Counted from the stretch's first letter, positions 15,553 through 32,000 are shown. The stretch is 32,000 nt of DNA from Cupriavidus necator (GCF_016127575.1 NZ_CP066018.1:3420001-3452000), one strand, 5' to 3'. A program made the numbers and translations. Notes: generated from the letters alone by a model not told the origin.

Positions 15553-16248
15553 ATGACCAAGCCCTCGATCATTCTGGCGCACGGTTTCTGGGGAGGTGCC
15601 GCGCATTGGGGAAAAGTCATCGTTGAACTGGCGCGAAAGGGGTATACGAACGTCCGCGCCGTTGAAATGCCGCTGACATCGCTTGCTGACGATGTCGAGC
15701 GTACCCGCAAGATGATTGCCCAGCAGAAGGGGCCGGTCCTCCTGGTGGGGCATTCGTACGGTGGTGCGGTGATTACCCAGGCGGGTGACCAGCCCAATGT
15801 GGTGGGGCTTGTGTATATCGCGTCGTTTGCGCCAGATGCGGGGGAGAGCCCCGGTGGCATTACGCATCAGCATCTTCCGGTTGCGGCGCCCAATCTCGAA
15901 CCCGACAGCGACGGCTACTTGTGGCTCAAATCCGATAAGTTCCATGAGAGCTTCTGCCAGGATCTTTCGCCCGACGACGCGCTGGTGATGGCGGTGACGC
16001 AGAAGGCGCCGCTTGCAAGCACCTTCGGCGACGTCATCACGACGCCGGCCTGGAAAAAGAAGCCGTCCTGGTACCAGATTTCCAGCGAAGACAGAATGAT
16101 CGCCCCCGAAAACCAACTGAAGATGTCGGCCCGGCTCAATCCCCGGAAGGTCGTGACTCTGGCGGCAAGCCATGCTTCGCTGGCTTCGAAGCCAGCCGAG
16201 GTTGCAGCGTTGATCGACGAAGCCGCGACGGAGTCGGTCAGGGGATAG
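15553..16248 (+). CDS. Alpha/beta-fold hydrolase of unknown specificity
   Basis: MTKPSIILAHGFWGG...LVGHSYGG (GxSxG elbow). AGGAG lies 7 nt before the ATG at 15553. The track ORF start at 15337 is an upstream extension. Confidence 0.75.
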   Translation: MTKPSIILAHGFWGGAAHWGKVIVELARKGYTNVRAVEMPLTSLADDVERTRKMIAQQKGPVLLVGHSYGGAVITQAGDQPNVVGLVYIASFAPDAGESPGGITHQHLPVAAPNLEPDSDGYLWLKSDKFHESFCQDLSPDDALVMAVTQKAPLASTFGDVITTPAWKKKPSWYQISSEDRMIAPENQLKMSARLNPRKVVTLAASHASLASKPAEVAALIDEAATESVRG

Positions 16249-16319
16249 CGCCCTGAACGCCCCGCCGGACCAGTGCGCCGAACAGCGGAAAGCTGCACGG
16301 TCAAGGGGGAGCCCCCCGG

Positions 16320-17711
16320 CTACAGCATCGCTGAATGCAAGTGATGCGGATTATCGAGCGTTTCCGCGATGATCCGCAGCGACTCCTCGATCTCATCGCG
16401 CTCGCCCGGGCCGCCCAGGCAGACACGGATCGCATCGGGCGGGTTGCCGTCGGTCGAGAAGGCGGCGGCCGATACCGCGCCGATGCCGCGCGAGCGCAAG
16501 TGCAGCGCCAGTTCCGACGGGCTCCACGCTGAAGCCGCCGGGATCGGCAGCCACAGGTGAAAGCCCTCCGGGTCCGCGTCATAGGCCAGGCCCTCGAGCA
16601 CATGGCGCGCAATCAACTGCCGCGCCGCGCTTTCGGCGCGGATGGCCTTGAGCATGTCGTCCACCGTTCCGTCCTTGATCCAGGATGTAGCGAGCAATGT
16701 GTTGATGGGGCTCGCCATCACCGTCGTTGCCCGCAGGGTGCCAGCCAGGCGCTGCGCCTGCCGGGCGGTGGGGGCGTGCAGGAACGCTATGCGCAGCCCG
16801 GCGCCCAGGCATTTGGACAGGCCGGTGACGTAATACGTGAGTTCCGGGGCGAGCGCGGCAAACGTCTGTGGTGCCCGCAGCGGCAGCATGCCGTAGGCAT
16901 CATCCTCGATGATCGGCACGCTGTAGCGCAGCGCGACTTCGGCGAGCTGCTCGCGGCGTGCCTGCGGCATGGTGCGCGTGCTCGGGTTCTGGATGGTCGG
17001 ATTGCAATAGAGCGCCGCCGGCTTCTGTGTCTTGCACATGGCTTCGAAGGCGTGGGCGAACGGGCCATCCTCGTCGCCGGGCAGCGCCTGTAGCTGGATA
17101 TTGAGCTGCGCGGCGATGGCCTTGATGCCGGGGTAGGCCAGCGCGTCGGCACAGATGGTCTGCGCCGGCCGTGCGAGCTGCGACAGCAGTGCAACCAGCG
17201 CGCTGTGGATGCCGGGCGTGACCAGCACGGTGTCCGCGCTGCATGCCGGCACCCAGCGGCGCAGCCATTTCGCAGCAACCGAGCGATCGGCCGGGGTTCC
17301 GCCGAAGTCCTGGTAGCGCAGCAGCGTGTAGGGATCGGCAGCCTCCAGCAGTTGCGCCATGGCGGAACGAAGCCGCGCTGTCATCGCGGGCGGCTCCGGC
17401 GGCATGTTCATGGACATCTCCGCACCCGTGCCGCCGCGCAGCGGCATCGCGGGCGCACGTCCGCGCACGTAGGTGCCACTTCCTGTCTTGGTGTCGATCA
17501 ATCCCCGCTTCCTCGCTTCACTGTAGCCGCGCGCCACGGTGGTGTAGTTCAGTTGCAGCGCTTCGGCCAGGTCGCGCAGCGGCGGCAGCCGGTCGCGCGC
17601 GCGCAACTGGCCGTCGGCCAGTGCCTCCTCGATCAGGTCCGGAATCAGTAAATAGGCCGGCTTGGCACTGCCGGCGATACGTTTTACCCAATGGCTGGTC
17701 AGGTTGGACAC
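16320..17711 (-). CDS. MocR/GabR-type regulator: GntR winged-helix domain fused to a fold-type-I aminotransferase-like PLP domain
   Basis: N-terminal LPPLRDLAEALQLNYTTVARGYSEARKRGLI, and a C-terminal aminotransferase-like region with YVTGLSKCLGAGLRIAF (putative PLP lysine). The probable start is a GTG at 17711 with GGAGA 5 nt upstream. Confidence 0.8.
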   Translation of the reverse strand: MSNLTSHWVKRIAGSAKPAYLLIPDLIEEALADGQLRARDRLPPLRDLAEALQLNYTTVARGYSEARKRGLIDTKTGSGTYVRGRAPAMPLRGGTGAEMSMNMPPEPPAMTARLRSAMAQLLEAADPYTLLRYQDFGGTPADRSVAAKWLRRWVPACSADTVLVTPGIHSALVALLSQLARPAQTICADALAYPGIKAIAAQLNIQLQALPGDEDGPFAHAFEAMCKTQKPAALYCNPTIQNPSTRTMPQARREQLAEVALRYSVPIIEDDAYGMLPLRAPQTFAALAPELTYYVTGLSKCLGAGLRIAFLHAPTARQAQRLAGTLRATTVMASPINTLLATSWIKDGTVDDMLKAIRAESAARQLIARHVLEGLAYDADPEGFHLWLPIPAASAWSPSELALHLRSRGIGAVSAAAFSTDGNPPDAIRVCLGGPGERDEIEESLRIIAETLDNPHHLHSAML

Positions 17712-18021
17712 CGTGGTCTCCCGCTGCGCGATGCGATGGCATTCAGTGCCCTGAGGGTAGCACCCGAATGATCGCTTACCAAGCCGCACAAGCGATTGCA
17801 TCAGAAGTTCTCAATGATGGTGCGATATCAGCGCGGATGCACCACGCGTGCGCACCAGGCGGCTGGTTCCCGTTCAAAAATGTGCATTGTGGCGAAGCCG
17901 TCATGGCGTGCGCTGTGCGCCTTTGGTGGCATCCATGGCCAAAGCCGTTGCGATCATTGGGCCGATCATTTGGTCGGCTTCGGCTTGATTGGAGATTGAT
18001 CGCATGACTGCGGGCATTGCG

Positions 18022-18036
18022 TGGCACATCGGTTGC
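18022..18036 (+). promoter_or_regulatory. Sigma-54 (RpoN) -24/-12 promoter TGGCAC-N5-TTGC upstream of the Nit1C-type operon
   Basis: tggcacatcggttgc was read directly. The match to the GG-N10-GC core, with flanking consensus bases, is exact. It lies 90 nt upstream of the first ATG (18126) in the correct orientation. Confidence 0.7.
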
Positions 18037-18125
18037 GGATGTTGGCGTGTTCGGCCTGGCGCCGAACGGTCGATCGGCAAGGGATCGGTCGGCCGCACTG
18101 CCCCATCAACGCAACGGAGAGAAGC

Positions 18126-18608
18126 ATGCCTGCTGTCAGCAAACCGGCCCACAAGAAGGGCGATTTCCTGGTCGACTATGAAGAGAAGGTATTCGAGGAC
18201 GTAAAGGCCGAAGCCGGCGAGAAGGCGCTGGTGACCTTCCACACCGTCGCCTTCGAAGGCTCGATCGGCTTCGTCAACATGCTGCAGGCCACGCGCCTGC
18301 TGCGCAAGGGCTTCGAGACCTCGATCCTGCTGTACGGCCCCGGCGTGAACCTTGGCGTTCAGCGCGGCTTCCCGACGCTTGGCGACGAGGCATTCCCCGG
18401 GCATATGAACTTCAACAAGCAGCTCACCAAGTTCATGGACGAGGGCGGCAAGGTCTACGCCTGCCGCTTCGCCCTGCAGGCCCTGTACGGCCACGGCGAG
18501 GCCTCGCTGATCGAGGGCATCCGCCCGATCAATCCGCTCGATGTGCTCGACCTCAAGCTGCTGCACCGCAAGGAGAACGCGCTGATCATCGATACCTGGA
18601 CGGTCTGA
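18126..18608 (+). CDS. Small conserved protein, first gene of Nit1C-type clusters (MSMEG_0572/Sll0783-like; NitB in Pseudomonas nomenclature)
   Basis: [23 protein letters not shown]..., 160 aa. GGAGAG lies upstream of the ATG at 18126. The assignment rests on position and on remembered family resemblance. Confidence 0.65.
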
Positions 18609-18628
18609 GCGAAAGGGCAGGTGCCACC

Positions 18629-19645
18629 ATGTCACAGAAACGCATTGTGCGCGCGGCCGCGGTCCAGATCGCGCCCGACCTCGAGAGCGGCGCAGGCACG
18701 CTGGCCAAGGTCTGCGAGGCGATCGACGAGGCCGCCGGGAAAGGCGTGCAGCTGATCGTGTTCCCGGAGACCTTCGTGCCGTACTACCCGTACTTCTCCT
18801 TCGTACGGCCGCCGGTGCACTCCGGCAGCGACCACATGCGGCTGTACGAGCAGGCCGTGGTGGTGCCCGGCCCGGTCACCGATGCCGTCGCCGGGCGCGC
18901 ACGCCGGCACGGCATGGTCGTGGTGCTCGGCGTGAACGAGCGCGACCACGGCAGCCTGTACAACACGCAGCTTATCTTCGACACCGAGGGCAACCTCGCG
19001 GTCAAGCGCCGCAAGATCACGCCCACCTTCCACGAACGGATGATCTGGGGGCAGGGCGATGCGGCCGGCCTGAAGGTCGCGGACACCGCGATCGGCCGCG
19101 TCGGCGCGCTGGCGTGCTGGGAGCACTACAACCCGCTGGCCCGCTATGCGCTGATGACCCAGCACGAGGAAATCCACTGCAGCCAGTTCCCGGGCTCGCT
19201 GGTCGGGCCGATCTTTGCCGAGCAGATCGAAGTCACGATCCGGCATCACGCGCTGGAATCCGGCTGCTTCGTCGTCAACGCCACCGGCTGGCTGACCGAA
19301 GCGCAGATCGCCTCCGTGACCACCGATCCGGCGCTGCAGAAGGCGCTGCGCGGCGGCTGCAACACTGCAATCATCTCGCCGGAGGGCCAGCACCTGGCGC
19401 CGCCGTTGCGCGAGGGCGAGGGCATGGTCATTGCCGACCTCGACATGTCGCTCATCACCAAGCGCAAGCGCATGATGGATTCGGTGGGCCACTACGCGCG
19501 CCCGGAACTGCTAAGCCTTGCCATCAATGAGCGGCCGGCGGCGACGGCAGTGCCGATGGCAGGCGCCTTCTCCAACTTCCATGGGAGTATCCGCGATGAC
19601 ATCCAGCGCGAGCGTGCCGGCTTCGAGCCGGCAATTGATGACTGA
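18629..19645 (+). CDS. Nitrilase (carbon-nitrogen hydrolase superfamily, Nit1C/Nit6803 type)
   Basis: Glu-Lys-Cys triad contexts [19 protein letters not shown] and [11 protein letters not shown]. 338 aa. Confidence 0.9.
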
Positions 19646-20741
19646 ACTGCAGTCCGTCGGGCTGCGCCTGGAAGACCCGAATGCCGGCGCGGCCAGCCGG
19701 CGCGGCGGGGCGGGTCCGTCCGATCACAAGGCGGTCACCATCGACGGCGTGACCATCATGGTGCCGGTGCATACCAGTACCGCGTGGCACTCGCCGTTCG
19801 TGGCGCATTCGCCCGACGGAACGGGGCGCAGCGCGCTGATGCGCGGCACCATCCCGATTGCCAGCATCAGCTTTCCGAAGGCGCCGCGTTTCCATGCGCT
19901 GCAGACCCTGGAGGGCATCCCGTACTCGCATATCGCCACGCTGCATGGCGCCGATGTGCTGGCCACCACGGTGCTGCAGACTTGCATCCGCTACGAGAGC
20001 CGCAAAAAGACCTGCAAGTTCTGCTCGATCGGCCAGTCGCTGGCGGCGGGCCGCACGATCGCGCGCAAGACGCCGGAGCAACTGGCCGAAGTGGCGCGCG
20101 CCGCAGTGCTGCTCGACGGCGTCAGGCATATGGTGCTGACCACCGGCACGCCGCCGACGCCGGACCGGGGCGCGGCTATTCTTTGCGAGAGCGCCTTCGC
20201 CATCAAGGCCGCGGTCGACCTGCCGATCCAGGCGCAGTGCGAGCCGCCCGACGACGACCGCTGGTTTGAGCGCATGAAGGCCGCCGGCATCGACACGCTC
20301 GGCATGCACCTCGAGGTCGTCACGCCGGCGCTGCGCGAGCGCATCATGCCGGGCAAGGCGGGGGTGCCTCCGAGCCGCTACATGGAAGCCTTCAAGGCCG
20401 CCGTTGCGGTGTTCGGCAGGGCGCAGGTCAGCACGTACATCCTCGCGGGACTCGGCGACACCGCGGAAGCCATCCTGTCGATCTCGCGCGAGCTGATCGA
20501 GCTCGGGGTGTATCCGTTCGTGGTGCCTTTCGTGCCGATCTCCGGCACGCCGCTGGAGGACCACCCGGCACCCTCGCCGGCCTTCATGCAGTCGATCCTG
20601 CAGCCGCTCGGCGCCATGCTGAGCGCCGCCGGCATGCGCTCGTCCGACATCAAGGCAGGTTGCGGCAAGTGCGGCGCGTGCTCGTCACTGGCCACCTACG
20701 AGCGCGAGGCGGCACTGGCGACCGACGGAGCGACATCATGA
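19596..20741 (+). CDS. Radical SAM-type protein (MSMEG_0568-like; NitD)
   Basis: Cys cluster C-x9-C-x2-C ([18 protein letters not shown]) plus C-terminal CGKCGAC. The ATG at 19596 has GGGAG upstream and overlaps the nitrilase by 50 nt. An alternative ATG at 19638 overlaps the nitrilase stop by 8 nt. Confidence 0.75.
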
Positions 20742-21292
20742 AAAGCGATCTCTGCGTCGAGGTGCCGGGCATCCCGATGTTCCGCATCCGCTGGGCGGAG
20801 CACACCTGGGAGGCGGAGCAGGCCTATCGCCTGCGCCAGGCCGTGTTCTGCGAGGAGCAGGGCATCTTTGCGGGCGACGACCGGGACGCGGTGGACGACG
20901 TGGCGCAACTGCTGGTGGCGGTGCGCTTCGAGCCGGAATTGCCCCGCCATCCCGGCACCGTGGTCGGCACGGTTCGCATCCATGAAAGCGAGCCGGGCGT
21001 GTGGTTCGGCTCGCGGCTTGCGGTGGATGCGGCATACCGAAGCCAGGGCAAGATCGGTGCGACGCTGATCCGCCTGGCGGTGAGCAGCGCCCACGCGATC
21101 GGCTGCCGGCGCTTCCTTGCGCACGTGCAGAGCCAGAACGTGCCCTTGTTCAGGCGCTTGCATTGGCACGTCCTGGCAGAGGAGACGCTGCTCGGGCGGC
21201 CTCACCACCTGATGCAGGCAGACCTGAACCATTACCCACCTTGTCATACGCCGCACGCGGGCCTGATTGCGGAAGGCAGGGCCGTGCGATGA
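20738..21292 (+). CDS. GNAT-family N-acetyltransferase (MSMEG_0567/Sll0786-like; NitE)
   Basis: ATGA overlap with the upstream stop. Contains the acetyl-CoA-binding-like segment RLAVDAAYRSQGKIGATL. 184 aa. Confidence 0.75.
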   Translation: MKSDLCVEVPGIPMFRIRWAEHTWEAEQAYRLRQAVFCEEQGIFAGDDRDAVDDVAQLLVAVRFEPELPRHPGTVVGTVRIHESEPGVWFGSRLAVDAAYRSQGKIGATLIRLAVSSAHAIGCRRFLAHVQSQNVPLFRRLHWHVLAEETLLGRPHHLMQADLNHYPPCHTPHAGLIAEGRAVR

Positions 21293-22284
21293 GCCTCGAC
21301 GACCTCGTACACACCTTGCGCAGCAGCCGGGGTTTTGCGCATAAGACCGATATCCCGGCCATGCTGTCGCCACTCGGCGCCGCGGCCACCGGACGCAACG
21401 CGGCCATGGCTGTCGATGTCGGCGACGACTGCGCGGCATGGCGGGATGGCGACGGCTACCTGCTGTTCGCCATTGAAGGACTGGTCAGTGATTTCATCCG
21501 CACGATGCCGTGGTTCGCCGGCTACAGCGCGGTCATGGTCAACATCAGCGATATCTATGCGATGGGCGGCAGGCCGACGGCCGTGGTCGATGCGCTATGG
21601 AGCCATGGCGCCGCCGACGCCGCTGAAGTGCTCAAGGGCATGGCAGCGGCGTCTGCCGCTTATGGCGTGCCGATCGTCGGCGGTCACAGCAACGCGCGCA
21701 GCGAGGAAAGCCAGCTTGCCGTGGCGATCGTTGGCCGGGCGCGCAAGCTGCTGTCGAGTTTCGCGGCGCGTCCCGGGCAGCGCCTGTTGATGGCGGTGGA
21801 CCTGCGCGGCGCGTTCGCGGAGCCGTACCCGTTCTGGAACGCATCGACGGGCGCGCCGGGCGAACGACTGCGCGCGGATCTCGAACTCTTGCCGGTGCTG
21901 GCCGAAGACGGCCTTTGCACCGCGGCCAAGGACATCAGCATGGCGGGTGCGCTCGGCACCGCGCTGATGCTGCTCGAATGCTCCGGGGTGGGCGCCAGCA
22001 TCGCGCTGGAGCGCATTCCGCGGCCCGATGGCGTGCCGCTGGAGCGATGGCTGACCGCATTCCCCAGCTATGGCTTCCTGCTGGCCGTCAATGACGACGA
22101 TGCGCAGGCGGTCGAACGCCGCTTCCTCGATCGCGGCATTGCCTGCGCCCAGATCGGCGCCATCGACGATTCCCGTGTCGCCACGCTCACGCACGCCGGC
22201 GAACGGGCCACGTTGTGGGACTTCCGCGAGGCAGGGTTCATCCTGCCGACGCGCCTGGCCACGCCGATCGATTCCCCAACCTGA
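21289..22284 (+). CDS. AIR-synthase-like (PurM/ThiL/HypE superfamily) ATP-dependent enzyme (Sll0787-like; NitF)
   Basis: ATGA overlap with the GNAT stop. N-terminal AVDVGDDCAA and NISDIYAMGG motifs are typical of the PurM-like superfamily. 331 aa. Confidence 0.78.
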   Translation: MSLDDLVHTLRSSRGFAHKTDIPAMLSPLGAAATGRNAAMAVDVGDDCAAWRDGDGYLLFAIEGLVSDFIRTMPWFAGYSAVMVNISDIYAMGGRPTAVVDALWSHGAADAAEVLKGMAAASAAYGVPIVGGHSNARSEESQLAVAIVGRARKLLSSFAARPGQRLLMAVDLRGAFAEPYPFWNASTGAPGERLRADLELLPVLAEDGLCTAAKDISMAGALGTALMLLECSGVGASIALERIPRPDGVPLERWLTAFPSYGFLLAVNDDDAQAVERRFLDRGIACAQIGAIDDSRVATLTHAGERATLWDFREAGFILPTRLATPIDSPT

Positions 22285-22292
22285 GACCTGCC

Positions 22293-22580
22293 ATGCCAGT
22301 TACCTATTTCCGCATCCGCTGGCCTGACCAGACCGAGATGGCCTGCTATTCCCCATCCTCCATCGTCACGGAGCACTTTGCCGAAGGGGCGGCGTATCCG
22401 CTGGACGAGTTCGTCGAGCGCGCGCGTACCGCGCTGGGCGCCGCTTCCGAGCGGGTGCGTGCCAGGTATGGCTACGCCTGCTCGTCCGCGATGGACCAGC
22501 TCCGCATCCTGGAAATCGCCGCGCAGCGGTTCCGGGGCCAGGACGGCGCCACCGTCCGGTTTCTCGGCTTTGGCAGCTAG
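22293..22580 (+). CDS. Small conserved protein of Nit1C-type clusters (MSMEG_0570-like; NitG)
   Basis: MPVTYFRIRWPDQTEMACYSPSSIV..., 95 aa, 8 nt after the upstream stop. The assignment rests on position and remembered family resemblance. Confidence 0.6.
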   Translation: MPVTYFRIRWPDQTEMACYSPSSIVTEHFAEGAAYPLDEFVERARTALGAASERVRARYGYACSSAMDQLRILEIAAQRFRGQDGATVRFLGFGS

Positions 22581-22615
22581 CCGTTCTTCAAATTCCTCGC
22601 CTTAAAGGATCCAAC

Positions 22616-23902
22616 ATGTCCAACGTCATCTACACCAATCCGGACCAGGCCGCAGAACCCAGGCACTACGGCGTCATCATTGTCGGCGGCGGCCAGGCCG
22701 GACTATCGATGAGCTACTTCCTGAAGCAGGCCGGCATCGATCATCTCATCATCGAGAAGCACACCGTCACGCATACCTGGCGCACGCAACGCTGGGATGC
22801 GTTCTGCCTGGTGACGCCGAACTGGCAATGCGCGCTGCCGGGCTATCCCTACCAGGGTGATGATCCGCACGGCTTCATGAAGAAGGATGAGATCACGGCC
22901 TATCTCGATGGCTTTATCCGGACGGTCGGCGCACCGGTGCTCGAGCACACCGAGGTACGGCAAGTGAAGGCGCGCGCTCAGGGGGGATTTGCCGTGGTGA
23001 CGAGCCAGGGTGCATTCACCGCAGACCAGGTGGTGGTGGCCTCGGGCGGTTATCACACGCCGATCGTGCCGCGCATGGCCGAGCGCCTGCCGGCGTCGGT
23101 CCGGCAGCTGCAATCGTCCGAATACAGGAATCCCGAGTCGCTGCCCGAGGGTGCGGTGCTCGTGGTTGGCTCGGGCCAGTCGGGCGCGCAGATTGCGGAA
23201 GACCTGCACCTGGCCGGCCGCAAGGTGTACCTGGCCGTCGGCGAGGCGCCGCGCTGCGCGCGCTTCTATCGCGGGCGGGACGTCGTGGACTGGCTCGCGG
23301 ACATGAAATACTACGACCTGCCGGTCACCGAGCATCCGCTGCGCGAGGGCGTTCGCGACAACACCAATCACTATGTCACCGGCCGCGACGGCGGGCGCGA
23401 TATCGACCTGCGCAGGTTTGCCACTGAGGGCATGGAGCTCTACGGCTTGCTCGACGACTACCTCGAAGGCCAACTGCGTTTTGCGCCGGACCTGCGTCGC
23501 AACCTGGACGATGCCGATGCGACTTACAACCGCATCAACGCGAGCATCGACAAGTTCATCGCGGAGCGAGGTATCGAGGCGTCGCCGCCGAGCGTCTATG
23601 AGCCCGTGTGGACGCCGCCGGCCGAGCGCACCGAACTTGATCCTCAGGCAGCCGGCATTGGTTCGATCATCTGGTGCATCGGCTTCCGGCCGGACTTCAG
23701 CTGGCTCGAAGTGCCGGTGTTCAACGGCCGCGGCTATCCGGGCCACGAACGTGGCGTGACCGCGCACGCCGGCCTGTACTTCCTTGGCCTGCCCTGGCTG
23801 CACACGTGGGGATCGGGGCGATTCTCCGGCATCGCGCGCGACGCCGAGTACCTGGCCGCCCTGATCGCCGCAGGCCGGGGCGACACCGCGCTGGCCGCCT
23901 GA
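22616..23902 (+). CDS. FAD/NAD(P)-dependent oxidoreductase, flavin-monooxygenase-like (MSMEG_0569-like; NitH)
   Basis: Two dinucleotide-binding motifs, VIIVGGGQAGLS and VLVVGSGQSGAQIA. 428 aa. Confidence 0.85.
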   Translation: MSNVIYTNPDQAAEPRHYGVIIVGGGQAGLSMSYFLKQAGIDHLIIEKHTVTHTWRTQRWDAFCLVTPNWQCALPGYPYQGDDPHGFMKKDEITAYLDGFIRTVGAPVLEHTEVRQVKARAQGGFAVVTSQGAFTADQVVVASGGYHTPIVPRMAERLPASVRQLQSSEYRNPESLPEGAVLVVGSGQSGAQIAEDLHLAGRKVYLAVGEAPRCARFYRGRDVVDWLADMKYYDLPVTEHPLREGVRDNTNHYVTGRDGGRDIDLRRFATEGMELYGLLDDYLEGQLRFAPDLRRNLDDADATYNRINASIDKFIAERGIEASPPSVYEPVWTPPAERTELDPQAAGIGSIIWCIGFRPDFSWLEVPVFNGRGYPGHERGVTAHAGLYFLGLPWLHTWGSGRFSGIARDAEYLAALIAAGRGDTALAA

Positions 23903-23903
23903 C

Positions 23904-24736
23904 ATGGAAGCCGTCGTCTCGCGCCATGTGGCCGGCATGCCCCAGTTGGCATACACCGGCCTGTCAGAGAACTGGCTGCTGAAGACCTGCGGCGACCTGC
24001 ACTGGCGCCTGCTGGCCGCCGGCGCCGGCCTGGGGGTGCCGGACTTCCGCGATGCCGAGGGCAATCCGGTGTATGCGGCGTTCACCGCGATCCGCGTGCG
24101 CGACGCCGCGCCGCAAACGGTCGGCGAGCACGCCGGGTTCAGCATCGGTTCGCACATCGTGCCAGCGGGTGGCGTGAAGCACCTCAGCGAACATGCGGTC
24201 GACATGCATGGGGACTGCCGCGCCAGCGTGACGATGCTGTCCACCTTCATCCGCCGCACGCGTGACCGGGACAACCGCTCGGTCGTGCGCACCATGCCGA
24301 CCGTGGCCGCGCAGTGGGCCGGCGCCGGCCCGTCGGCACAGGCGGCGGAACTGTCGCTGCTGGCACGGCGTTTTCGCGGCGGGGATTGGGGCATGCATCT
24401 CGGGCTCGATCAGGCCCGGCATCGCGTCTGCCACGCCGCCGAGTACCTGCCGTGCCCCTGCAACGACTTCAATGGCGCCGACCTGCTGTACTTCGCCAGC
24501 TTCCAGGCCATGGTCGATCGCGCGGAATGGCAATGGCGCCGCGACGCGGATCCGCCCACGGTGTTCGCGCGGGACCTGTTCTTCCATGGCAACGTCAATG
24601 TCGGCGAGTCGCTGGAGCTGATCTTCTCCGCGCTGCGCGAGGACGAGGAAGGATTGACGCACTGGTGTGAGATCCGGCGCAGCCGCGACGGCGAGAAGAT
24701 CGCAGATGTGGTCACGCAGAAGCGGTGGAGGCAACG

Positions 24737-24740
<4 letters not shown>
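23904..24740 (+). CDS. Double hot-dog-fold protein, LnmK / Pnap_2097-like (tentative)
   Basis: Starts 1 nt after the flavoprotein stop. Two hotdog-like halves each open with a helix-type motif (GLSENWLLKTCGDLHWRLL and DFNGADLLYFASFQAMVDRAEWQW). The family name is from memory. Confidence 0.5.
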
Positions 24741-26815
<2,075 letters not shown>

Positions 26816-27007
26816 GCGTGACGTCCTCGATCGCCACGTCGCCCACCAGCATGTAGCCGGGCGCATGCGTGATACACAGCGGCAGCAGCGCCTGCACGGC
26901 CGCGGCCAGAGGCGTGCCGCCTGGATGGCGATGCTTCCGCTTGCTGAGATGTCCGACAACCGGGTCGCGACCTTCCCGCGTTTCGTATTTGCACCAGAAC
27001 CTTCGCC

Positions 27008-28063
27008 CTACCGCGTGGCGAACGCCAGCCGCGGTGGCGCTTCTGGCACCGCGCAGCGAACGCGCCGGTCGCGCTCCGGCAGTGTCAGCTGGGTACGTGG
27101 CGGCGCGGCTCGCCGCACGCCGAGGATTTCGGCTACATTGGCTTGCGGGCGGAGCAGCGGCCGCAGCAGCGAGGCGGGGCCTGTGAGCAGCGGCGTCACG
27201 CCCGGGCCGTGCCCGCTGACCGTGCTGTCGCCGTGTACCACGACGCCGATGGTCACGCGGTCATTGGCGTAGCGCGGCCCCCGCCGCGTATCGGCGCCGA
27301 TGATCGCCACCATGTCGCCGAAGCGCAGGCTGCCCAGACGGTAGCGCTCACGTGCCTGCCGGTCCGACAGCTGGATATCGTAATCCCCGCGCCATGCATT
27401 GTTCTTTCCCAGTCCGGAGCCCATGACGCGCGCCGGCACCAGATGCGTGACCGGCGCATGGAGCTGGCCATCGCGCTCCAGCAGGCCCCATCGCGCCAGC
27501 AGGCGCGGCGAGCAGTTGAGGACTTCGATTCGGGGGTAGTCGCGGAGTCGTAAGCCCAGTCCATGCGAAAGAACCTGGATGCGGTCGCCGATGCAAAGGC
27601 GCACCAGCACCTCCGTGGGAAAGTCCACCAGCACGTGGTTGACGCCGCCGTGCTTGCCCGTCACCACACCAGTCCGGCCCGCGCACGCTCCGTTGACCAC
27701 ACGGGCCGGATTGCCGACGCAGGCATAGGTCAGCAGGGCGCTGTTGGGTCCGTCGCGTGGGCCGACGATCTCGCGCCCGTTGTTGTGCAGGGCGACCCCC
27801 GGCTCGATATGGTCGCCCGCCAACCCGACGCAAGGATCGCCGATGCGCCTATTGACCACGATGCCGCCGGTACCCGGCAGGACGCGCGGCACGCCGTCGT
27901 AGCCAATGCGGTAGGGCGAGGCGCGCCCCACGGGATGCGCGATCTGCCCAAGGACGGACACCGCCACGAGTTCGTCGGCATTGATTCGGGGAACGGGGCG
28001 TGCACCGTCGCGGCCGGCCGGACGGGACAGGGCTTGCTGGACGAGCGGAATCGGGCGGGACAT
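27008..28063 (-). CDS. DUF4438-like protein (function unknown)
   Basis: The SPYRIGYDGVPRVLPGTGGIVVNRRIGDPCVGLAGDHIEPGV segment resembles what I remember of DUF4438 (the TM1086 family). The ATG at 28063 has GGAG 9 nt upstream. An alternative ATG at 28072 directly abuts the GGAG. Confidence 0.55.
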   Translation of the reverse strand: MSRPIPLVQQALSRPAGRDGARPVPRINADELVAVSVLGQIAHPVGRASPYRIGYDGVPRVLPGTGGIVVNRRIGDPCVGLAGDHIEPGVALHNNGREIVGPRDGPNSALLTYACVGNPARVVNGACAGRTGVVTGKHGGVNHVLVDFPTEVLVRLCIGDRIQVLSHGLGLRLRDYPRIEVLNCSPRLLARWGLLERDGQLHAPVTHLVPARVMGSGLGKNNAWRGDYDIQLSDRQARERYRLGSLRFGDMVAIIGADTRRGPRYANDRVTIGVVVHGDSTVSGHGPGVTPLLTGPASLLRPLLRPQANVAEILGVRRAAPPRTQLTLPERDRRVRCAVPEAPPRLAFATR

Positions 28064-28075
28064 GGGTGCCATCTC

Positions 28076-28750
28076 CTATCGCATCCTGCGCACCACGGTG
28101 GCGGCGATCTGCGGCTGTCCCGGCGCGCGCCGGTTCTCGGCCGCGACGGCGTCGTAGATGGTGTGCGCGATATGGTGCAGCTCCGCATCGGTCACGCGTC
28201 CGCTGACCTGATAGAACAGGCGCACGCGCTGCGGCAGCCCGGGCACGGCGCTGGTCCGGGACTGGCGCATATGGCGCCGCACCTGGTCCATGTCGCGCAC
28301 CACCTGTCGCGCAAGATGGCTCAGGCGTAGCCGTCCGTTGGCGTCGCGGTAATCGGTTGCGTGTAGCAGCTTGCTTTCGAGGCCTGCCGGCAGGCGCTTG
28401 GGGGCAGCCGGCATCGGCGTGAGATCGAGCACCGAGCCGCCCCTGCGCGGGCCGATGCGGAGCTGGTTGCGCACATCGAAGCCGCGCAGGCACAGGCGTT
28501 CGACCAGGATCTGCTCGGCGCAACGGCCACGCAGGTTATTGATGACGATGAGCGCCGGACGCTGCCCGCGCGGCCGGGCCTCGGCGGCGGCCAGATCACG
28601 GCATGCCAGATGCCGGGCGCGCGAGGCCGGCAGGCATTCGTTGCGGCCGACGGCAGGGTCGGCATCCCCGGCGCGTCCGCGCTCGCGCGTCCAGTGCCGA
28701 ACGGCATCGTCAAGCATGGCGTCGACGAACTGGTCGATTGCTGCGCTCAT
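28076..28750 (-). CDS. Hypothetical protein (224 aa)
   Basis: MSAAIDQFVDAMLDDAVRHW... The ATG at 28750 forms an ATGA overlap with the upstream gene's stop. The track ORF extension to 29068 was rejected. No family was recognised. Confidence 0.55.
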   Translation of the reverse strand: MSAAIDQFVDAMLDDAVRHWTRERGRAGDADPAVGRNECLPASRARHLACRDLAAAEARPRGQRPALIVINNLRGRCAEQILVERLCLRGFDVRNQLRIGPRRGGSVLDLTPMPAAPKRLPAGLESKLLHATDYRDANGRLRLSHLARQVVRDMDQVRRHMRQSRTSAVPGLPQRVRLFYQVSGRVTDAELHHIAHTIYDAVAAENRRAPGQPQIAATVVRRMR

Positions 28751-29613
28751 GCTTCGGCTCCTTGCGGGGCCGGTGTGCCGATCGCCGGAGTGGGGCAAAG
28801 GGGATACCACCAGGCGGTGGCTTGCTGCCAGGGGTCGGCATGATGGCCGGTCCCGACCAGCGGGCCATCGACGCAAGCATGGTGCGGCGACGACGCCATT
28901 ACATGCAGCGCGGCCAGCCTGGGCAGGCGTTCGGCGAGCCCGGCCACTCCTGCCGCTGCCAGTGCGTCGCGCAGCAGCGAGCGCTCGGCGCCGAACAGGG
29001 ATTCGGAAGGCAGCGGGTCCAGATGCCGCACGTCGACGCCGCTTCGCCACAGGGCATGCACCGGCCACGGTGCGCCGTCACCATCAAGCGTGGTCAGCAC
29101 GATGGCGGCATCGAGCGTGGCGGAGAGTGCGAGCGTGTCGAGGGCGATGGCGAGCGGATCCCACCAGGGGGAGGGCATTGGGCCGAGCGCCGGCCTTGCC
29201 CCCTCGCAGCGGCGCAGCAGGGCGTCGAGCAGGACCTCGTAGCGCTCGACCACGGCATGGTCGGCAGCGTCGCCGAGCTGGGAACCGGCCACGTTGTCTC
29301 CGACCCAGCGAAACGGCCACGACGCGGCATCGGTGCAGTCGCGCATCGCGATCCACGCAATCAGAGCGGGTTCGAGCGGCCTCGGCACGGCGCCGCCGCT
29401 GTCCAGTGCCGCGCCGTTGGCCGAGAGGCCTGGCAGTACCATCTCGCTCGCATCGATGACCTGCCAGAACGCGCGCGTGAGCCAGGGCTCCAGCACCCGC
29501 GTGAGCCGCAACGCCAGGCTCGGCCCCCAGGGCGACCCGAGCACCAGCGCGGGATCGAGGATGCAGGCGAGCTTGCGTTGCCGTACCGATACGATCATGT
29601 CCTCAGCATGCAT
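28747..29613 (-). CDS. Hypothetical protein (288 aa)
   Basis: MHAEDMIVSVRQRKLACILDPALVLG... GGAGA lies 9 nt upstream of the ATG at 29613. No family was recognised. Confidence 0.55.
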   Translation of the reverse strand: MHAEDMIVSVRQRKLACILDPALVLGSPWGPSLALRLTRVLEPWLTRAFWQVIDASEMVLPGLSANGAALDSGGAVPRPLEPALIAWIAMRDCTDAASWPFRWVGDNVAGSQLGDAADHAVVERYEVLLDALLRRCEGARPALGPMPSPWWDPLAIALDTLALSATLDAAIVLTTLDGDGAPWPVHALWRSGVDVRHLDPLPSESLFGAERSLLRDALAAAGVAGLAERLPRLAALHVMASSPHHACVDGPLVGTGHHADPWQQATAWWYPLCPTPAIGTPAPQGAEA

Positions 29614-29672
29614 GGCGGGGCGTCTCCGTGTCAGCCGCGGTCAGGGATGCGCAAATGTACGGCGCGCCACGG

Positions 29673-30758
29673 TCAGGCCGCAGCCTGCGGCACGCCGAGC
29701 ACGCTGTTCAGCGCGTGTGTCACGCCGGGGAATCCTCGGCCCTCGGGCGTCATCCGGTACGCGGCGACCCACGCTTCCGCGTGCGCGCCCATGGGCCGCA
29801 CCACGCTCTGGAACAGGATCGGATCGGTTGCGGTCTTGAAATCATTGTCCGCAACAAACTGCAGGATCCGCCGGCCGCTTTCGGCCATCTTGGCCCGTTG
29901 CGAGGGCTCGGCCACCCCGCCGAGATAGCGATTCGAGACGATCTCGACCACATCCCACTTGGTGTTGGCGTCAAAGGCCTTCTTGATGTCGGGCGAATCC
30001 AGCAGCTTGAGCACCTGGATCAGGTAATGCCCGGTTTCCATCGCGAGCGCGAAGATATTGCCGTAGGTAGACCGGTCCAGCGCATAGCGCAGGTCGAGCC
30101 CGATGCGCTGGATGGTGCCGACGCTGCCGAAGGGACGCTGGTCGATCAGCTGTCCGCCCCGGATGACTTCGCCGATCAGCAGATCGCGGAAGTACTGGCC
30201 CATCGCCACCATGAAGCCGACCATCTGGCGATGGAAATTGCGGTTGACCACTGCGCCGGCCGGGGCCTGCGCGGTGCCATAGTTGAAGGCGCGCCGATAG
30301 GCCACCATGCGGTCCTGCCGGGTGTAGCGCAGTGGCCGCCATTTTTCGAGCAGATAGAGTCCGCGCGCGCCGGGGCCGCGCTGGATGCGCATCTTCCCCA
30401 GGCGGAACAAGCGCAGCAGGGTCTCGACCACCTCAAAGATCTTCATGCGCTCGTGCTGATAGATAAAGTACAGCTCGGCAGCCGCATGCAACTGGCTCGG
30501 GATGATTGAATCGTCGAAGTCAGGCTGTACATAGGGATAGCCGATCTTCTCGAAGCCGACTGCCCCCTGAGGACCGAGGCCGAGCAGATCGAAGAAGCCT
30601 TCCTCCCCGCTGCCATTGGGTTTGGACAACAGTTCAGAGTAACGCTGCTCGAACTGCGAGGCGAAGGCGTCGCGCTGGTCGGGCGGCAGGCTGGCCAGCT
30701 GCTCCTGCAGAAAGGTCTCCCACAGGCGCTGAATGGTTTCGGTGGTCTGGAAGTTCAT
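29673..30758 (-). CDS. Hypothetical protein (361 aa)
   Basis: MNFQTTETIQRLWETFLQEQL... Its composition is balanced and globular (K, F, Y, I, N present), unlike the antisense frames. GGAG lies 6 nt upstream of the ATG, 21 nt after the upstream stop. No family was recognised. Confidence 0.7.
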   Translation of the reverse strand: MNFQTTETIQRLWETFLQEQLASLPPDQRDAFASQFEQRYSELLSKPNGSGEEGFFDLLGLGPQGAVGFEKIGYPYVQPDFDDSIIPSQLHAAAELYFIYQHERMKIFEVVETLLRLFRLGKMRIQRGPGARGLYLLEKWRPLRYTRQDRMVAYRRAFNYGTAQAPAGAVVNRNFHRQMVGFMVAMGQYFRDLLIGEVIRGGQLIDQRPFGSVGTIQRIGLDLRYALDRSTYGNIFALAMETGHYLIQVLKLLDSPDIKKAFDANTKWDVVEIVSNRYLGGVAEPSQRAKMAESGRRILQFVADNDFKTATDPILFQSVVRPMGAHAEAWVAAYRMTPEGRGFPGVTHALNSVLGVPQAAA

Positions 30759-30779
30759 GATGCGCTCCGTCGTCGGGGG

Positions 30780-32000
30780 TCAGGCCTTGGCAGGGCCGCC
30801 GTCGGGACCCGCAGGGCCCGCTCCGCTACCGTCGGCGCCAGTACCTTCGGTGCCGTCGAAGGCATCAGCCGCACCGGGAGTGAGAGGGGCGGGGGCAGCG
30901 GCGGGCGGCACGGCGGACGTGCCCGGCGTAAGGAGTCGCCGGCGATTCCGTTCCCCCAACTCGTGCGCGATACGATCGATCGAGCCGTCCGGATGTGGCG
31001 GAATCTGCGGGGCGTGCTCGCGATAGTCGCGGTTGCGCCGGTGCCACTCGGGCACGCGCTGCTCGATCATCATCAACGCGCCGCGCTGGTATCCCGGCAG
31101 CATTCCGATATTGCCAAAGGTCCCCATATGTGGCGGACTGTGATAGACGGGGGCGAGCGTCGCATCTGCAAGCATATCCGAGGCCGGAATGCAGCCGGAT
31201 GTCATCTGTTCGACGATGGGCCGCAGTGCGCGCTCGGCCTGCAGCTGGAGCACAAGCTCGCCATGCATCAGCCAGGCGAGCGGTGTCGGTCCTGCCGGCC
31301 CCGTCAGATCGAAGTGATCAATGGTGTGCTTGTCCCATACACGCCATTGGGGCGCGGGGATGACCGGATCCTGCGGGGCGGCGAAGCTGACCCCTGCCGG
31401 GATCAGCAGTGCGGCCATTTCCGACAGCATTGCGCCCGTCGGGTTGTCGGGATTGGTGATGTCCTTCATCGGTGCAGCGGCATCGAGCCAGACATCGGGG
31501 TAACGCAGCGCCAGCGCAAAGATGGCGTGGGCGGCGGCACGCTGTTCCGGCATGCCAAACTCTTCGGTGCCGTTGGCGTAGAGATCGATTGCGCGGTCGA
31601 GATCGTGCAGGACACGGTCAAGCAGGACCTGCAGCTTGAGCGTATCGGGGTCGCAGTCGCAACGGGTGACACAGTCGATGGTCGAAGCAAATCTGCCGCG
31701 CAGACTGACCAGATTCATCAGACGCTGCTCGGCAAAGGTGGTGCCGCTCCCTCCGTAAAGGCCATACATCAGTACGCTGGGACGCGCAATGCGCAGGAGG
31801 CGCAGGCCGCCGGAAGCCTGGAAGCCGTCCACGAACAACTGCAAGGCGTCCTGAAACGCCAGCAGCGGTGGCGCGTCGCGGACCGGCAGGTGCAGCGTCA
31901 CCTGCACGAAGCGCGAGAACCGCCCGAGCATGTTCCATGCGGTCGCGCCGACCCGGCGCAGCCCGTCGCTCGAGCCTCCCGCACACAGCTGGATCATTTC
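30780..32000 (-). CDS. Hypothetical protein with a Pro/Ala/Gly-rich C-terminal tail; the reading frame is open to the right edge, so it may be 5'-truncated
   Basis: A 405-aa ORF in the track (ATG at 31997), but the frame continues through 32000 with no stop. The body has ordinary composition, and roughly the last 50 residues are low complexity. Confidence 0.6.
   Translation of the reverse strand, partial: EMIQLCAGGSSDGLRRVGATAWNMLGRFSRFVQVTLHLPVRDAPPLLAFQDALQLFVDGFQASGGLRLLRIARPSVLMYGLYGGSGTTFAEQRLMNLVSLRGRFASTIDCVTRCDCDPDTLKLQVLLDRVLHDLDRAIDLYANGTEEFGMPEQRAAAHAIFALALRYPDVWLDAAAPMKDITNPDNPTGAMLSEMAALLIPAGVSFAAPQDPVIPAPQWRVWDKHTIDHFDLTGPAGPTPLAWLMHGELVLQLQAERALRPIVEQMTSGCIPASDMLADATLAPVYHSPPHMGTFGNIGMLPGYQRGALMMIEQRVPEWHRRNRDYREHAPQIPPHPDGSIDRIAHELGERNRRRLLTPGTSAVPPAAAPAPLTPGAADAFDGTEGTGADGSGAGPAGPDGGPAKA

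Follow-up and report, generated by a model that had tools for sequence, protein, structure and literature searches.

A conserved cassette encoding a DUF4438 protein and a putative metallopeptidase in Cupriavidus necator and other bacteria

Organization of the locus

The window analyzed here is a stretch of 32,000 nucleotides from chromosome 1 of Cupriavidus necator H16 (NZ_CP066018.1:3420001-3452000), and ORF analysis places five tightly packed co-directional genes, designated D, E, F, G, and H in order of transcription, on the minus strand of its positions 27008-32000 (Table 1). The sequence-only reading of this DNA had described five such closely spaced ORFs preceded by Shine-Dalgarno sequences, and the same coordinates, gaps, and GGAG or AGGAG motifs were found again. 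D and E are separated by 21 nt, with GGAG 6 nt before the ATG of E, and E and F by 59 nt, with the GGAG of F 10 nt upstream; the start of G lies on the stop of F in an ATGA overlap, and its AGGAG stands 7 nt upstream. The gap between G and H is 3 or 12 nt, depending upon which of two ATG codons initiates H. The second of these (28063) is the likelier start because AGGAG stands 9 nt before it but abuts the first (28072); several assemblies also annotate H from the second ATG. A scan of the spacer beyond H predicted neither an intrinsic terminator nor a sigma-70-like promoter.

All five genes, including the sparsely distributed G (GC3 of 0.83), share the GC1-high, GC2-low, and GC3-high pattern of the neighboring mutase gene, with GC3 values of 0.77-0.83, and their coding status is far beyond chance. 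Two opposite-strand ORFs (28371-29459 and 28603-29928), named in the sequence-only reading as possible rivals, do not have this codon-position pattern and are spurious.

Table 1. Genes and spacer at the distal part of the operon, in window coordinates; locus tags and accessions are presumed correspondences.
Feature	Position	Strand	Description
Gene D	30780..32000+	-	At least 405 aa, open at the window edge; presumed H16_A1944, CAJ93045
Gene E	29673..30758	-	361 aa, basic, all-alpha; presumed H16_A1945, CAJ93046
Gene F	28747..29613	-	288 aa, acidic, pI about 5; presumed H16_A1946, CAJ93047
Gene G	28076..28750	-	224 aa, very basic; presumed H16_A1947, CAJ93048
Gene H	27008..28063 or 27008..28072	-	351 or 354 aa, DUF4438; presumed H16_A1948, CAJ93049, Q0KAC2
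Spacer	26816..27007	.	192 nt between the stops of convergent H and a methylmalonyl-CoA-mutase-like gene of the Nit1C cluster

Gene content and distribution of the cassette

The operon had been predicted to leave the window, and exact-match contigs indeed supply three further genes upstream (A, B, and C) together with the N-terminal 287 residues of D. In C. necator the operon comprises eight genes, A to H (presumably H16_A1941-A1948), and a GerE/LuxR-type regulator gene lies upstream of it in divergent orientation. The general order of the cassette is A-B-C-D-(X)-E-F-(G)-H plus the regulator, where X is a hypervariable fibrous ORF found before E in most genomes. Cassette and regulator were matched in 168 stretches of a one-genome-per-species collection, the carriers belonging to the Beta-, Gamma-, and Alphaproteobacteria, Cyanobacteria, Desulfobacterota, and Armatimonadota. 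It had been proposed that the unit be abandoned if homologues were never co-localized elsewhere; orthologues of D, E, F, and H instead recur in the same order across phyla in the 80 fetched loci (F in most cassettes), and gene order and the GerE regulator are kept in almost all of these, including those of low-GC cyanobacteria. F is missing from Massilia and X from C. necator and Burkholderia, so these two components are dispensable.

Compared with the H16 proteins, the orthologues are 69-91% (E), 58-82% (C), and 55-80% (H) identical, in phyla whose GC contents extend from about 42% to 70%. In the identity matrix, Massilia, Steroidobacter, and Armatimonadota are out of place, and the patchy, HGT-like distribution is that of a cassette that has evidently spread horizontally. 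The distribution of charge is also constant: C, E, and H have pI values of 9-10.8 and D and F of about 5 in all lineages, low-GC Microcystis among them.

Walker A motifs, membrane segments, and signal-like hydrophobic stretches are absent from all eight proteins, and Pfam searches detected no BMC, CsoS4/EutN, HK97, GvpA, capsid, portal, terminase, sheath, or baseplate domain. No recognizable nuclease, TIR, Sir2, or pore-forming domain was found in the cassette proteins. The five window proteins gave 0 matches at E<=1 to the 5027 models of PADLOC-DB 2.0, none in NCBIfam, and nothing significant in PHROGs. The literature was searched for the cassette, and for reports of its expression or phenotype, and none were found; the system appears to be uncharacterized.

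Proteins encoded by the cassette

Genes D to G had been called orphans in the sequence-only reading, and they belong to no family that could be recognized when profiles were used to search Pfam, NCBIfam, PADLOC, PHROGs, and the sequences of PDB. Full-length D (692 aa, pI 5.5; locus L004, 7901-9979), of which the C-terminal 405 codons lie in the window, consists of a conserved N-terminal portion of about 450 aa followed by a low-complexity, variable tail; most of the fetched loci encode an orthologue with 35-54% identity to it, and its profile has no match in PDB or Pfam. E is the ultra-conserved core of the cassette, with no known relative, fold, or function. Its identity of 69-91% to the orthologues was measured over 80 loci, and no pairwise value falls below 65%. 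No match to its sequence was found among PDB sequences and no relative among 2.9 million IMG/VR contigs, and a Foldseek search with its AlphaFold2 model (pLDDT 83.7, pTM 0.72) found no match in PDB (best E 1.8, TM <=0.18) or BFVD. One submitter's name for E, DUF3800, has no corresponding Pfam match at E<=1.

F, which is also present in the hybrid locus L111, has seven acidic positions conserved in at least 90% of the alignment (D20, D54, D95, D106, E110, E126, and D159). No Pfam family is common to more than one of 40 members (best E 0.017), and the best PDB match of its profile, a designed protein, is not significant (E 0.023); a submitter's naming of F as a PIN or PD-(D/E)XK nuclease finds no nuclease profile match. 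G occurs among the fetched loci only in Cupriavidus and in L008, L014, and L031 and has relatives in 13 clusters within 5.8 billion proteins; one submitter designated it a Tyr recombinase, but Pfam shows no such family at E<=1.

H had been placed tentatively in DUF4438, and this placement is now firm: both Pfam domains exceed their gathering scores, the N-terminal domain (PF14505) with 183.2 bits (cut-off 24.9; E 2e-54) and the C-terminal domain (PF20999) with 159.6 bits (cut-off 27; E 4e-47). H also aligns over 279 residues with TM1086 (PDB 3dcl and 3n99; E 3e-65), a member whose structure is solved although the function of the family is not known; no paper mentioning the TM1086/DUF4438 family was found. 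The TM1086 entries contain 5 and 30 chains in the crystal, and these counts hint at a pentamer-based oligomer. Stand-alone DUF4438 proteins (about 284 aa) lack the N- and C-terminal tails of the basic H (pI 10.9). Thousands of Firmicutes and Thermotogae carry such proteins without any cassette partner, and in Thermotogae and Clostridia these lie in unrelated and non-conserved contexts, whereas H is locked into the cassette.

The operon had earlier been described as lacking any enzyme signature, but this is not true of its full set of genes, since the upstream protein C carries an invariant HExxH...ExxAD metallopeptidase motif (H191-E-x-x-H195 and E234-x-x-A-D238). HE[VTI][AS]H occurs in each of the 65 sequences of type I and in the sequences of the diverged type II that were examined, and the arrangement HExxH-36-ExxAD holds for all 65 and for all 34 type II sequences having HExxH. 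In type I, WHKE[IV][FW]AD stands 38-39 residues beyond the second His (65/65), and type II has ExxAD or ExxSD (34/34). At the level of this motif, C looks like an active zinc metallopeptidase, and HExxH with ExxxD is likewise characteristic of the gluzincin clan MA(E). The spacing between the two elements is 19 in thermolysin and about 58 in neprilysin and differs from the 36 of C; 28 members and a profile of C matched no peptidase family in Pfam or PDB at E<=1, and none in NCBIfam.

The paralogues A and B are block-charged, of low complexity, and highly enriched in Arg and acidic residues, and they have conserved N-terminal, junction, and C-terminal motifs. An acidic, disordered head (net charge of the N-terminal block -20 to -48) is joined through a conserved acidic/basic junction to Arg-rich heptad-like repeats (C-terminal block +21 to +33), and the proteins end in a GPVxIxI strand, with GP[VI]x[ILV]x[ILV] present in 46/59 A and 51/65 B sequences. 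For A, one submitter chose the name 'tail tape measure protein', which has no counterpart among Pfam matches at E<=1. X proteins contain cadherin (E 5e-16), collagen (E 1e-6), and coiled-coil segments; 17 of them form one BLAST cluster with a C-terminal segment in common, as judged by eye. The regulator, which probably controls transcription of the cassette, resembles the LuxR/GerE family in its helix-turn-helix (PF00196, E 2e-14, 53.4 bits, cut-off 23.5) but has neither an autoinducer-binding nor a receiver domain, and no match was found for the N-terminal domain, which is about 100 residues long.

Diverged cassette types

Besides the type I cassette described above, two further diverged types were found on megaplasmids and plasmids, and in both an E-like protein adjoins a peptidase. 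Type II, which like type I is accompanied by the regulator, keeps A/B-like proteins, C, and an E-like protein (hhalign probability 97-100%), and the slot between C and E is taken by a variable beta-rich protein. C is joined there by a peptidase of family M20 and by an Amidohydro_2 enzyme, both absent from type I. Type III has an S8 peptidase; up to three hydrolases can be present in one cassette.

Possible functions of the cassette

Tentatively, and with more doubt than assurance, we favor the view that the cassette encodes a self-assembling cytoplasmic protein complex that includes charged scaffolds and a peptidase for their maturation; the assembly itself, the scaffold role, the pairing of protease with substrate, and control by the regulator are all parts that we infer. 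Such a complex would be soluble and NTPase-free, with E as the principal self-associating subunit and basic H and acidic D and F as stoichiometric partners. A and B would serve as multivalent scaffolds to be trimmed or matured by C, probably at their conserved acidic/basic junction, and X, where present (C. necator has none), might be attached through its conserved C-terminal module. This view is supported by the conservation of a single unit whose gene order is frozen in nearly all 80 loci, the extremely strong conservation of E, C, and H, the complementary charges of C/E/H, D/F, and A/B in every lineage, the repeats and end motifs of A and B, the lack of energy or membrane components, the peptidase motif of C and the retention of the core in diverged cassettes, and, additionally, the fibrous segments of X and the TM1086 chain counts.

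Extreme conservation of this kind is also seen in subunits of protein-organelle shells and lattices, such as GvpA and CsoS1. By analogy, the cassette may be likened to the alpha-carboxysome cso and gas-vesicle gvp clusters, which have one ultra-conserved small or medium subunit, a patchy and HGT-prone distribution, a core that does not require an NTPase, and 7-9 genes; basic disordered repeat proteins in two versions, as in CsoS2 of cso, also recall A and B. The cassette differs from these clusters in lacking their BMC, CsoS4/EutN, HK97, and GvpA domains and any cargo enzyme except the peptidase, and none of their structures was recovered in the search with the E model. Searches for an encapsulin or bacterial microcompartment shell were negative, there being no HK97-fold encapsulin and no BMC-H or BMC-P domain (PF00936 or PF03319) in the eight proteins and no PDB chain near the E model (TM <=0.18). 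The E model has no structural neighbor, so nothing ties E to a known shell, filament, or lattice protein. Other features that weigh against assembly are the dispensability of X and F in some genomes, the M20 and Amidohydro_2 enzymes of type II, which look more metabolic or proteolytic than structural, the partnerless DUF4438 proteins of Firmicutes and Thermotogae, and a hypervariable component, which suits an arms race better than a housekeeping structure.

It is to this last feature that the main rival appeals, a protease-activated conflict system acting in anti-phage defense or abortive infection or in inter-strain competition, which we consider unlikely but a serious competitor. X and the variable part of D would sense an invader, C would then cleave the self-neutralized pro-proteins A and B, and the freed Arg-rich polycations would strike at nucleic acids or the membrane from within; F, with its conserved acidic residues, would be an effector resembling a nuclease, and the regulatory chassis would consist of E, H, and D. 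A single hypervariable slot within an otherwise frozen cassette is in keeping with this scheme, as are the patchy distribution, the location of types II and III on megaplasmids and plasmids, and the presence of a peptidase in every E-like cassette type (C in I and II, M20 in II, and S8 in III). In protease-activated antimicrobial-peptide precursors an acidic pro-piece is joined to a cationic domain, an arrangement that A and B may resemble. Bacterial gasdermins with their protease and eukaryotic anionic-propiece/cationic-peptide precursors offer analogies for a dedicated protease beside cationic domains that an acidic segment neutralizes, but the cassette has no gasdermin, caspase-like, or CHAT domain and its proteins are far larger. 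Nor do the PADLOC models or the searches for NTPase, nuclease, TIR, Sir2, and pore-forming domains lend the scheme any support, and the putative sensor X is absent from C. necator. Defense genes usually diverge fast, so a core identity of 65-91% across phyla is atypical of them, and a dedicated LuxR-type regulator is unusual in defense islands.

An improbable alternative is dedicated protein or peptide turnover, in which A and B would be ribosomally made reserve or regulatory proteins rich in Arg, Asp, and Glu, degraded on demand by C (with the M20 peptidase and amidohydrolase in type II), and E, D, H, and F would be adaptors or hydrolases of new families. The low-complexity, Arg- and acid-rich composition of A and B and the occurrence of up to three hydrolases in one cassette would fit such a role, but type I lacks both the M20 peptidase and the amidohydrolase, no transporter or biosynthetic enzyme is linked, and the conserved motifs of A and B suggest specific binding rather than bulk storage. 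Storage also leaves the hypervariable, fibrous X and the extreme conservation of E unexplained. [quoted passage not shown]

A domesticated phage-derived particle (tailocin, GTA-like, or capsid-like), with X as fiber and A and B as tape measure or scaffold, is very improbable and largely refuted. Collagen-like and Ig-like segments of X are reminiscent of phage fibers and the name given to A by one submitter points the same way, but that name was not reproduced, PHROGs gave no significant hit to any of the five window proteins, the Pfam domains of phage structural proteins yielded nothing, and E has neither an IMG/VR relative nor a BFVD structural match. Prohead maturation combines a protease with a scaffold, a logic that C, A, and B might be thought to share. 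Finally, although long spurious ORFs are common in high-GC DNA and G has almost no relatives, the notion of unrelated neighbors or annotation artifacts has next to no probability and is refuted for D, E, F, and H by their common order in 80 loci of several phyla, low-GC cyanobacteria included, by codon-position GC that supports coding, and by junctions that show translational coupling.

Organization of the operon

The minus-strand genes at the right end of the window are part of an eight-gene operon, A to H, of which the C-terminal part of D and the whole of E to H lie inside the window and A to C lie upstream. ORF analysis recovered five close-packed frames with the same junctions that a sequence-only reading had described. 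The operon also continues past the window, as that reading had expected, since D is open at the edge and contigs found by exact-protein look-up, which locate the window on chromosome 1 of C. necator H16 (AM260479.1, ~2.11 Mb) as well as in further strains of the species, show eight genes (CAJ93042 for A through CAJ93049 for H). From gene order, the operon tags should be H16_A1941-A1948, and the tag of the regulator described next would be H16_A1940. A GerE/LuxR-type regulator gene lies upstream and is divergently transcribed, and the GerE domain of its product (E 2e-14) is the sole Pfam match among the four upstream proteins.

Genes of the operon and its convergent neighbour: positions in the window, full lengths of the products, junctions, and identity to the H16 proteins among homologous loci
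Feature	Position	Strand	Length	Junction	Identity to H16 protein
A			380 aa		24-73%
B			358 aa		24-73%
C			432 aa		58-82%
D	30780-32000, open at window edge	-	692 aa (ORF of at least 405 aa in window)		mostly 41-54%
E	29673-30758	-	361 aa	21-nt gap from D	69-91%
F	28747-29613	-	288 aa	59-nt gap from E	24-57%
G	28076-28750	-	224 aa	ATGA overlap with F	
H	27008-28072 or 27008-28063	-	351-354 aa	3- or 12-nt gap from G, by start	55-80%
Nit1C-type cluster with methylmalonyl-CoA-mutase-like gene	~16000-26815 (13944-21086 of L004, the locus fetched from AM260479.1)	+		convergent neighbour	

Shine-Dalgarno sequences (GGAG/AGGAG) are found 6-10 nt upstream of the E, F, and G starts. At H, an AGGAG stands immediately before the first ATG and 9 nt ahead of the second, so the 351-aa form appears likelier than the longer one. 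All five frames are high in GC at the first and third codon positions and low at the second, as is the neighbouring mutase gene; this pattern is not seen in the plus-strand ORFs 28371-29459 and 28603-29928, which had been raised as the possible real genes and are set aside on this ground. H matches DUF4438 in Pfam (E 2e-54 for the N-terminal and 4e-47 for the C-terminal domain) and D, E, F, and G have no Pfam match, in agreement with the earlier placing of the last gene alone; NCBIfam, PADLOC, and PHROGs returned nothing for the five window proteins. A scan of the convergent spacer after H found no terminator or promoter.

Distribution and conservation

Protein E has 780 relatives (as 90%-identity clusters) among 5.8 billion proteins, the best 120 of which are all at least 76% identical and annotated only as 'hypothetical'. 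A scan of one genome per species across 185,579 species gave 168 matching stretches. On the betaproteobacterial side these fall in Burkholderiales, Nitrosomonas, and Aromatoleum; other proteobacterial stretches belong to Methylococcales, Lysobacteraceae, Steroidobacter, and the Alphaproteobacteria Bradyrhizobium, Roseiarcus, and Stellaceae. Many are from Cyanobacteria (Microcystis, Leptolyngbya, Acaryochloris, Synechococcus, Cyanobium, and the early-branching Candidatus Cyanaurora), and the remainder from Sericytochromatia, Armatimonadota, and Desulfobacterota. The protein search also revealed a homologue in the myxobacterial Polyangiaceae.

When the eight H16 proteins were compared by tblastn with 80 fetched loci, A-B-C-D-E-F-H and the GerE regulator were found in the same order nearly everywhere, the regulator being upstream and divergent in Burkholderiales and downstream in other loci. 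G is restricted to Cupriavidus and three other loci among the 80, and has 13 relatives in the whole protein collection. Since homologues are co-localised across genomes, against the earlier concern that they might never be, the operon is by comparative criteria a real functional unit, and chance adjacency of unrelated genes is refuted.

Throughout cassettes of the C. necator kind (type I), pairwise identity of E is at least 65%, with median values of 80-86% within phyla versus 69-81% between phyla, and Massilia, Steroidobacter, and Armatimonadota are out of place in the identity matrix. The closeness of the within- and between-phylum values and the several misplaced taxa point to very strong purifying selection and to a horizontal mode of spread. 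Identities of 65-91% compare with those of the most conserved housekeeping proteins, and their maintenance in Cupriavidus, Microcystis, and Desulfobacterota alike implies a molecular machine or material under tight constraint.

Between F and H, a Microcystis aeruginosa metagenome-assembled genome (L060 11999-12652, minus strand) carries a 217-aa opposite-strand ORF that by eye resembles Uma2 (restriction-endonuclease-like), a family common in cyanobacteria; two other loci (L062 and L063) have larger gaps at this position.

Properties of the encoded proteins

E is all-alpha and is basic, with pI 9.0 in every lineage. AlphaFold on a shallow alignment, limited to sequences above 76% identity, reached pLDDT 47, and that model was not used. 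Among 1.84 billion cluster representatives, a profile search recovered 699 relatives at E<=1e-3, some only 20-31% identical, and the deeper alignment yielded a confident model of 15 helices (pLDDT 83.7, pTM 0.72), in which a hairpin of helices at the N-terminus is joined by a linker of poor prediction quality to a core of residues 87-354. Foldseek matched this model to nothing in the PDB to April 2026 (best E 1.8, TM <=0.18) or in BFVD. Residues conserved across the superfamily include Y97, R144, R150, Y154, R156, N172, D222, E241, and W268. Sequence and profile searches of the PDB with E, D, C, and F gave no significant match.

C, which is encoded outside the window, is basic (pI 10.8) and has the invariant residues H191-E-x-x-H195-N...D200 and W-H-K-E234-x-x-A-D238. 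The HExxH-36-ExxAD arrangement is present in 65/65 type I C proteins and in every C with HExxH from the type II cassettes described below, and at the level of the motif C thus carries the gluzincin signature; Pfam and PDB searches, profiles included, assigned it to no peptidase family.

A and B are paralogues with a block-charge layout, in which an acidic disordered N-terminal block (net charge -20 to -48) is followed by an Arg/Ala/Gly/Val-rich remainder (net charge +21 to +33), and this layout is kept in low-GC Microcystis. Both have conserved motifs at the N-terminus (MDxxFExDVMxDL) and at the junction of the blocks (ALDAEDxDEF[LF]), RVAGQVG-like repeats of variable copy number, and commonly, at the C-terminus, a strand of the form GP[VI]x[ILV]x[ILV] (46/59 A, 51/65 B).

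D is acidic (pI 5.2), with some 450 conserved N-terminal residues and no match anywhere in the PDB or Pfam, profiles included. F is likewise acidic, with conserved Asp/Glu residues, and profile searches with it were without significant match. H aligns across 279 residues to TM1086, whose two PDB entries contain 5 and 30 chains. DUF4438 is a large family (over 7,300 proteins at E<=1e-10), and the neighbourhood of the stand-alone members in Thermotogae and Clostridia is not conserved. Two of the first three contexts inspected had an intramembrane protease neighbour, namely a rhomboid in Thermotoga sp. KOL6 (L171 6001-7525) and an Rce1-like CPBP protease in Zhenhengia (L173 5044-6855); four other genomes had none, and the adjacency is therefore probably coincidence. 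No membrane segment or Walker A motif was found in any of the eight proteins.

Most loci outside Cupriavidus have an extra ORF, X, between D and E; C. necator and Burkholderia are without it. Its products (~70-520 aa, mostly 150-340) split into many mutually unrelated sequence clusters, examples of which show cadherin domains (E 5e-16), collagen triple-helix repeats (E 1e-6), or coiled coils; one BLAST cluster holds 17 X proteins that by eye have a common C-terminal segment of ~60 residues. A reading of the D tail and X as polymorphic toxin and immunity protein was rejected, given that the D tail has conserved islands, X is fibrous rather than immunity-like, and a secretion component or membrane protein is absent.

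More diverged cassettes

A metagenome scan seeded with short E-like proteins 26-31% identical to E recovered at least 514 stretches, mostly from soil, whose neighbourhoods define a second cassette type. In order, type II cassettes encode the GerE regulator, a pair of A/B-like proteins, C, a protein of 187 aa, a beta-rich variable protein (400-495 aa), one of ~430 aa, the E-like E2, Peptidase_M20, and Amidohydro_2. Their A/B-like proteins match those of type I with hhalign probabilities of 97-99%, and their C proteins with E 1e-75 to 1e-86; equating D with the 187-aa and 430-aa proteins combined was rejected (hhalign probability <1%). A complete type II cassette (L175 2766-12729) is carried by megaplasmid NZ_AP023181.1 of Paraburkholderia sp. 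PGU19, with two A/B-like genes, C, genes for 187-aa and 652-aa proteins, E2, Peptidase_M20, Amidohydro_2, and a GerE regulator. No feature is entered for this stretch in the PLSDB gene table. A hybrid on metagenome contig Ga0224723_1000022 (L111 3188-12021) combines type II A/B, C, and 430-family genes with an F of type I (E 7e-79) and a GerE regulator on the same strand, an arrangement that shows shuffling of modules between cassette types.

Long E-like proteins (550-800 aa) adjoin an S8 subtilase, for example on Tolypothrix plasmids. In the Tolypothrix sp. PCC 7712 plasmid (L174 5608-15779) and a second locus (L087), E-like proteins of 586-615 aa lie beside the subtilase, and the former additionally encodes a TIG-domain protein and a PG_binding_1 coiled-coil protein, together with several orphans. 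Such loci appear to represent a third type of cassette. Types II and III are regarded as older sister cassettes in which, as in type I, an E-like protein is paired with a peptidase and, because all three types have it, this pairing is taken as the ancient invariant. The bipolar proteins and the GerE regulator accompany the pair in types I and II, and D, F, H, and X were added in type I.

Possible nature of the system

System-level searches covered defence models, phage families, viral contigs, compartment shell domains, and secretion or membrane parts without a match, and nothing in them links the system to a known kind. A tentative proposal, possible rather than probable, is that the products of the cassette assemble themselves in the cytoplasm into a multi-protein complex or lattice. 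The constrained subunit E would self-associate, with H, D, and F as its partners of complementary charge and A and B as multivalent polyampholyte scaffolds; C may act as a maturation peptidase with A and B as substrates, X would be an attached variable fibre, and the GerE regulator would serve as the on-switch. We infer each of these functional steps from extreme conservation combined with a patchy distribution, reminiscent of GvpA and CsoS1, from conserved charge complementarity and repetitive scaffolds, and from the absence of an NTPase and the fibrous character of X.

The main rival to assembly, itself rather unlikely, is a protease-activated conflict system in which A and B are cut by C to free their polycationic halves, with X acting as sensor. 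The hypervariable slot occupied by X, the universal peptidase linkage, and carriage on plasmids would suit such a role, whereas the core is frozen, X is missing in C. necator, and neither a known effector nor a PADLOC match was found. A dedicated protein-turnover role, suggested by the presence of Peptidase_M20 and Amidohydro_2 in type II cassettes, is improbable, and the remaining probability falls to something else. The idea of a phage-derived particle is largely refuted, as E has no IMG/VR match and PHROGs gave none.

The cassette appears to be undescribed: its genes are annotated as hypothetical, six of the eight proteins are without a solved structure, four to six families (A/B, C, D, E, F, and G) are missing from Pfam, NCBIfam, PADLOC, and PHROGs, and the family DUF4438 is solved by crystallography and has no assigned function. 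The part of the literature covered contained nothing on DUF4438, nothing relevant on TM1086, and nothing on H16_A1940-A1948, and the supplements of two C. necator omics papers had no data for the operon genes. With the same reserve as the assembly proposal, the cassette might represent a new class of bacterial intracellular assembly, organelle-like or lattice, in which E supplies a new all-alpha fold, the block-polyampholyte scaffolds A and B give order, C, as a dedicated new-family metallopeptidase, carries out maturation, and X adds a hypervariable fibre; it would have spread horizontally across phyla, with types II and III as older sisters. Whichever answer applies, C, D, E, and F would stand as new protein families, four at the least, and DUF4438 would gain a first functional context; a new compartment, scaffold, or protease-gated effector would also offer synthetic biology a building block in an industrial chassis. 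Several hosts are genetically tractable, including C. necator H16, Burkholderia, Roseateles, Aromatoleum, and Paraburkholderia.

Annotation and flanking sequences

Recent submitters (CP196472, CP196548, and others) have named E 'DUF3800 domain-containing', F 'PD-(D/E)XK nuclease family', G 'Tyr recombinase domain-containing', A 'Tail tape measure protein', and C 'Peptidase MA-like domain-containing'. The first four names could not be reproduced with Pfam and look like over-annotation; that of C is the sole one reproduced, at the level of the motif. Gene B in AM260479.1 (L004 5438-6526) encodes 362 aa with an Arg/Pro-rich, nonsense-like second half, and in newer C. necator assemblies (L001 5436-6512) a well-behaved 358 aa; the longer form is probably a frameshift sequencing error of the 2006 H16 assembly. 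In C. necator CP196450.1 (L005 8210-9979), D is called as 589 aa versus 692 aa, with 91% tblastn coverage, which suggests that its 5' end differs or is disrupted.

The convergent Nit1C-type cluster contains radical SAM, GNAT, AIR-synthase-like, and flavin monooxygenase genes, and its adjacency to the cassette is not kept in other genomes. Upstream of A, an CTAGAGTG element resembling a -10 TAGAGT box (L004 4185-4216) is conserved in ~16 Burkholderiales loci, 17-208 nt (mostly ~50-130 nt) from the first A/B start. Just 5' of it lies an inverted repeat, for example ACAAAACACGTTTTGT in Roseateles and GATGCGGCG-n7-CGCCGCATC in H16, and the two together are a candidate promoter-operator region at which the GerE regulator would act.
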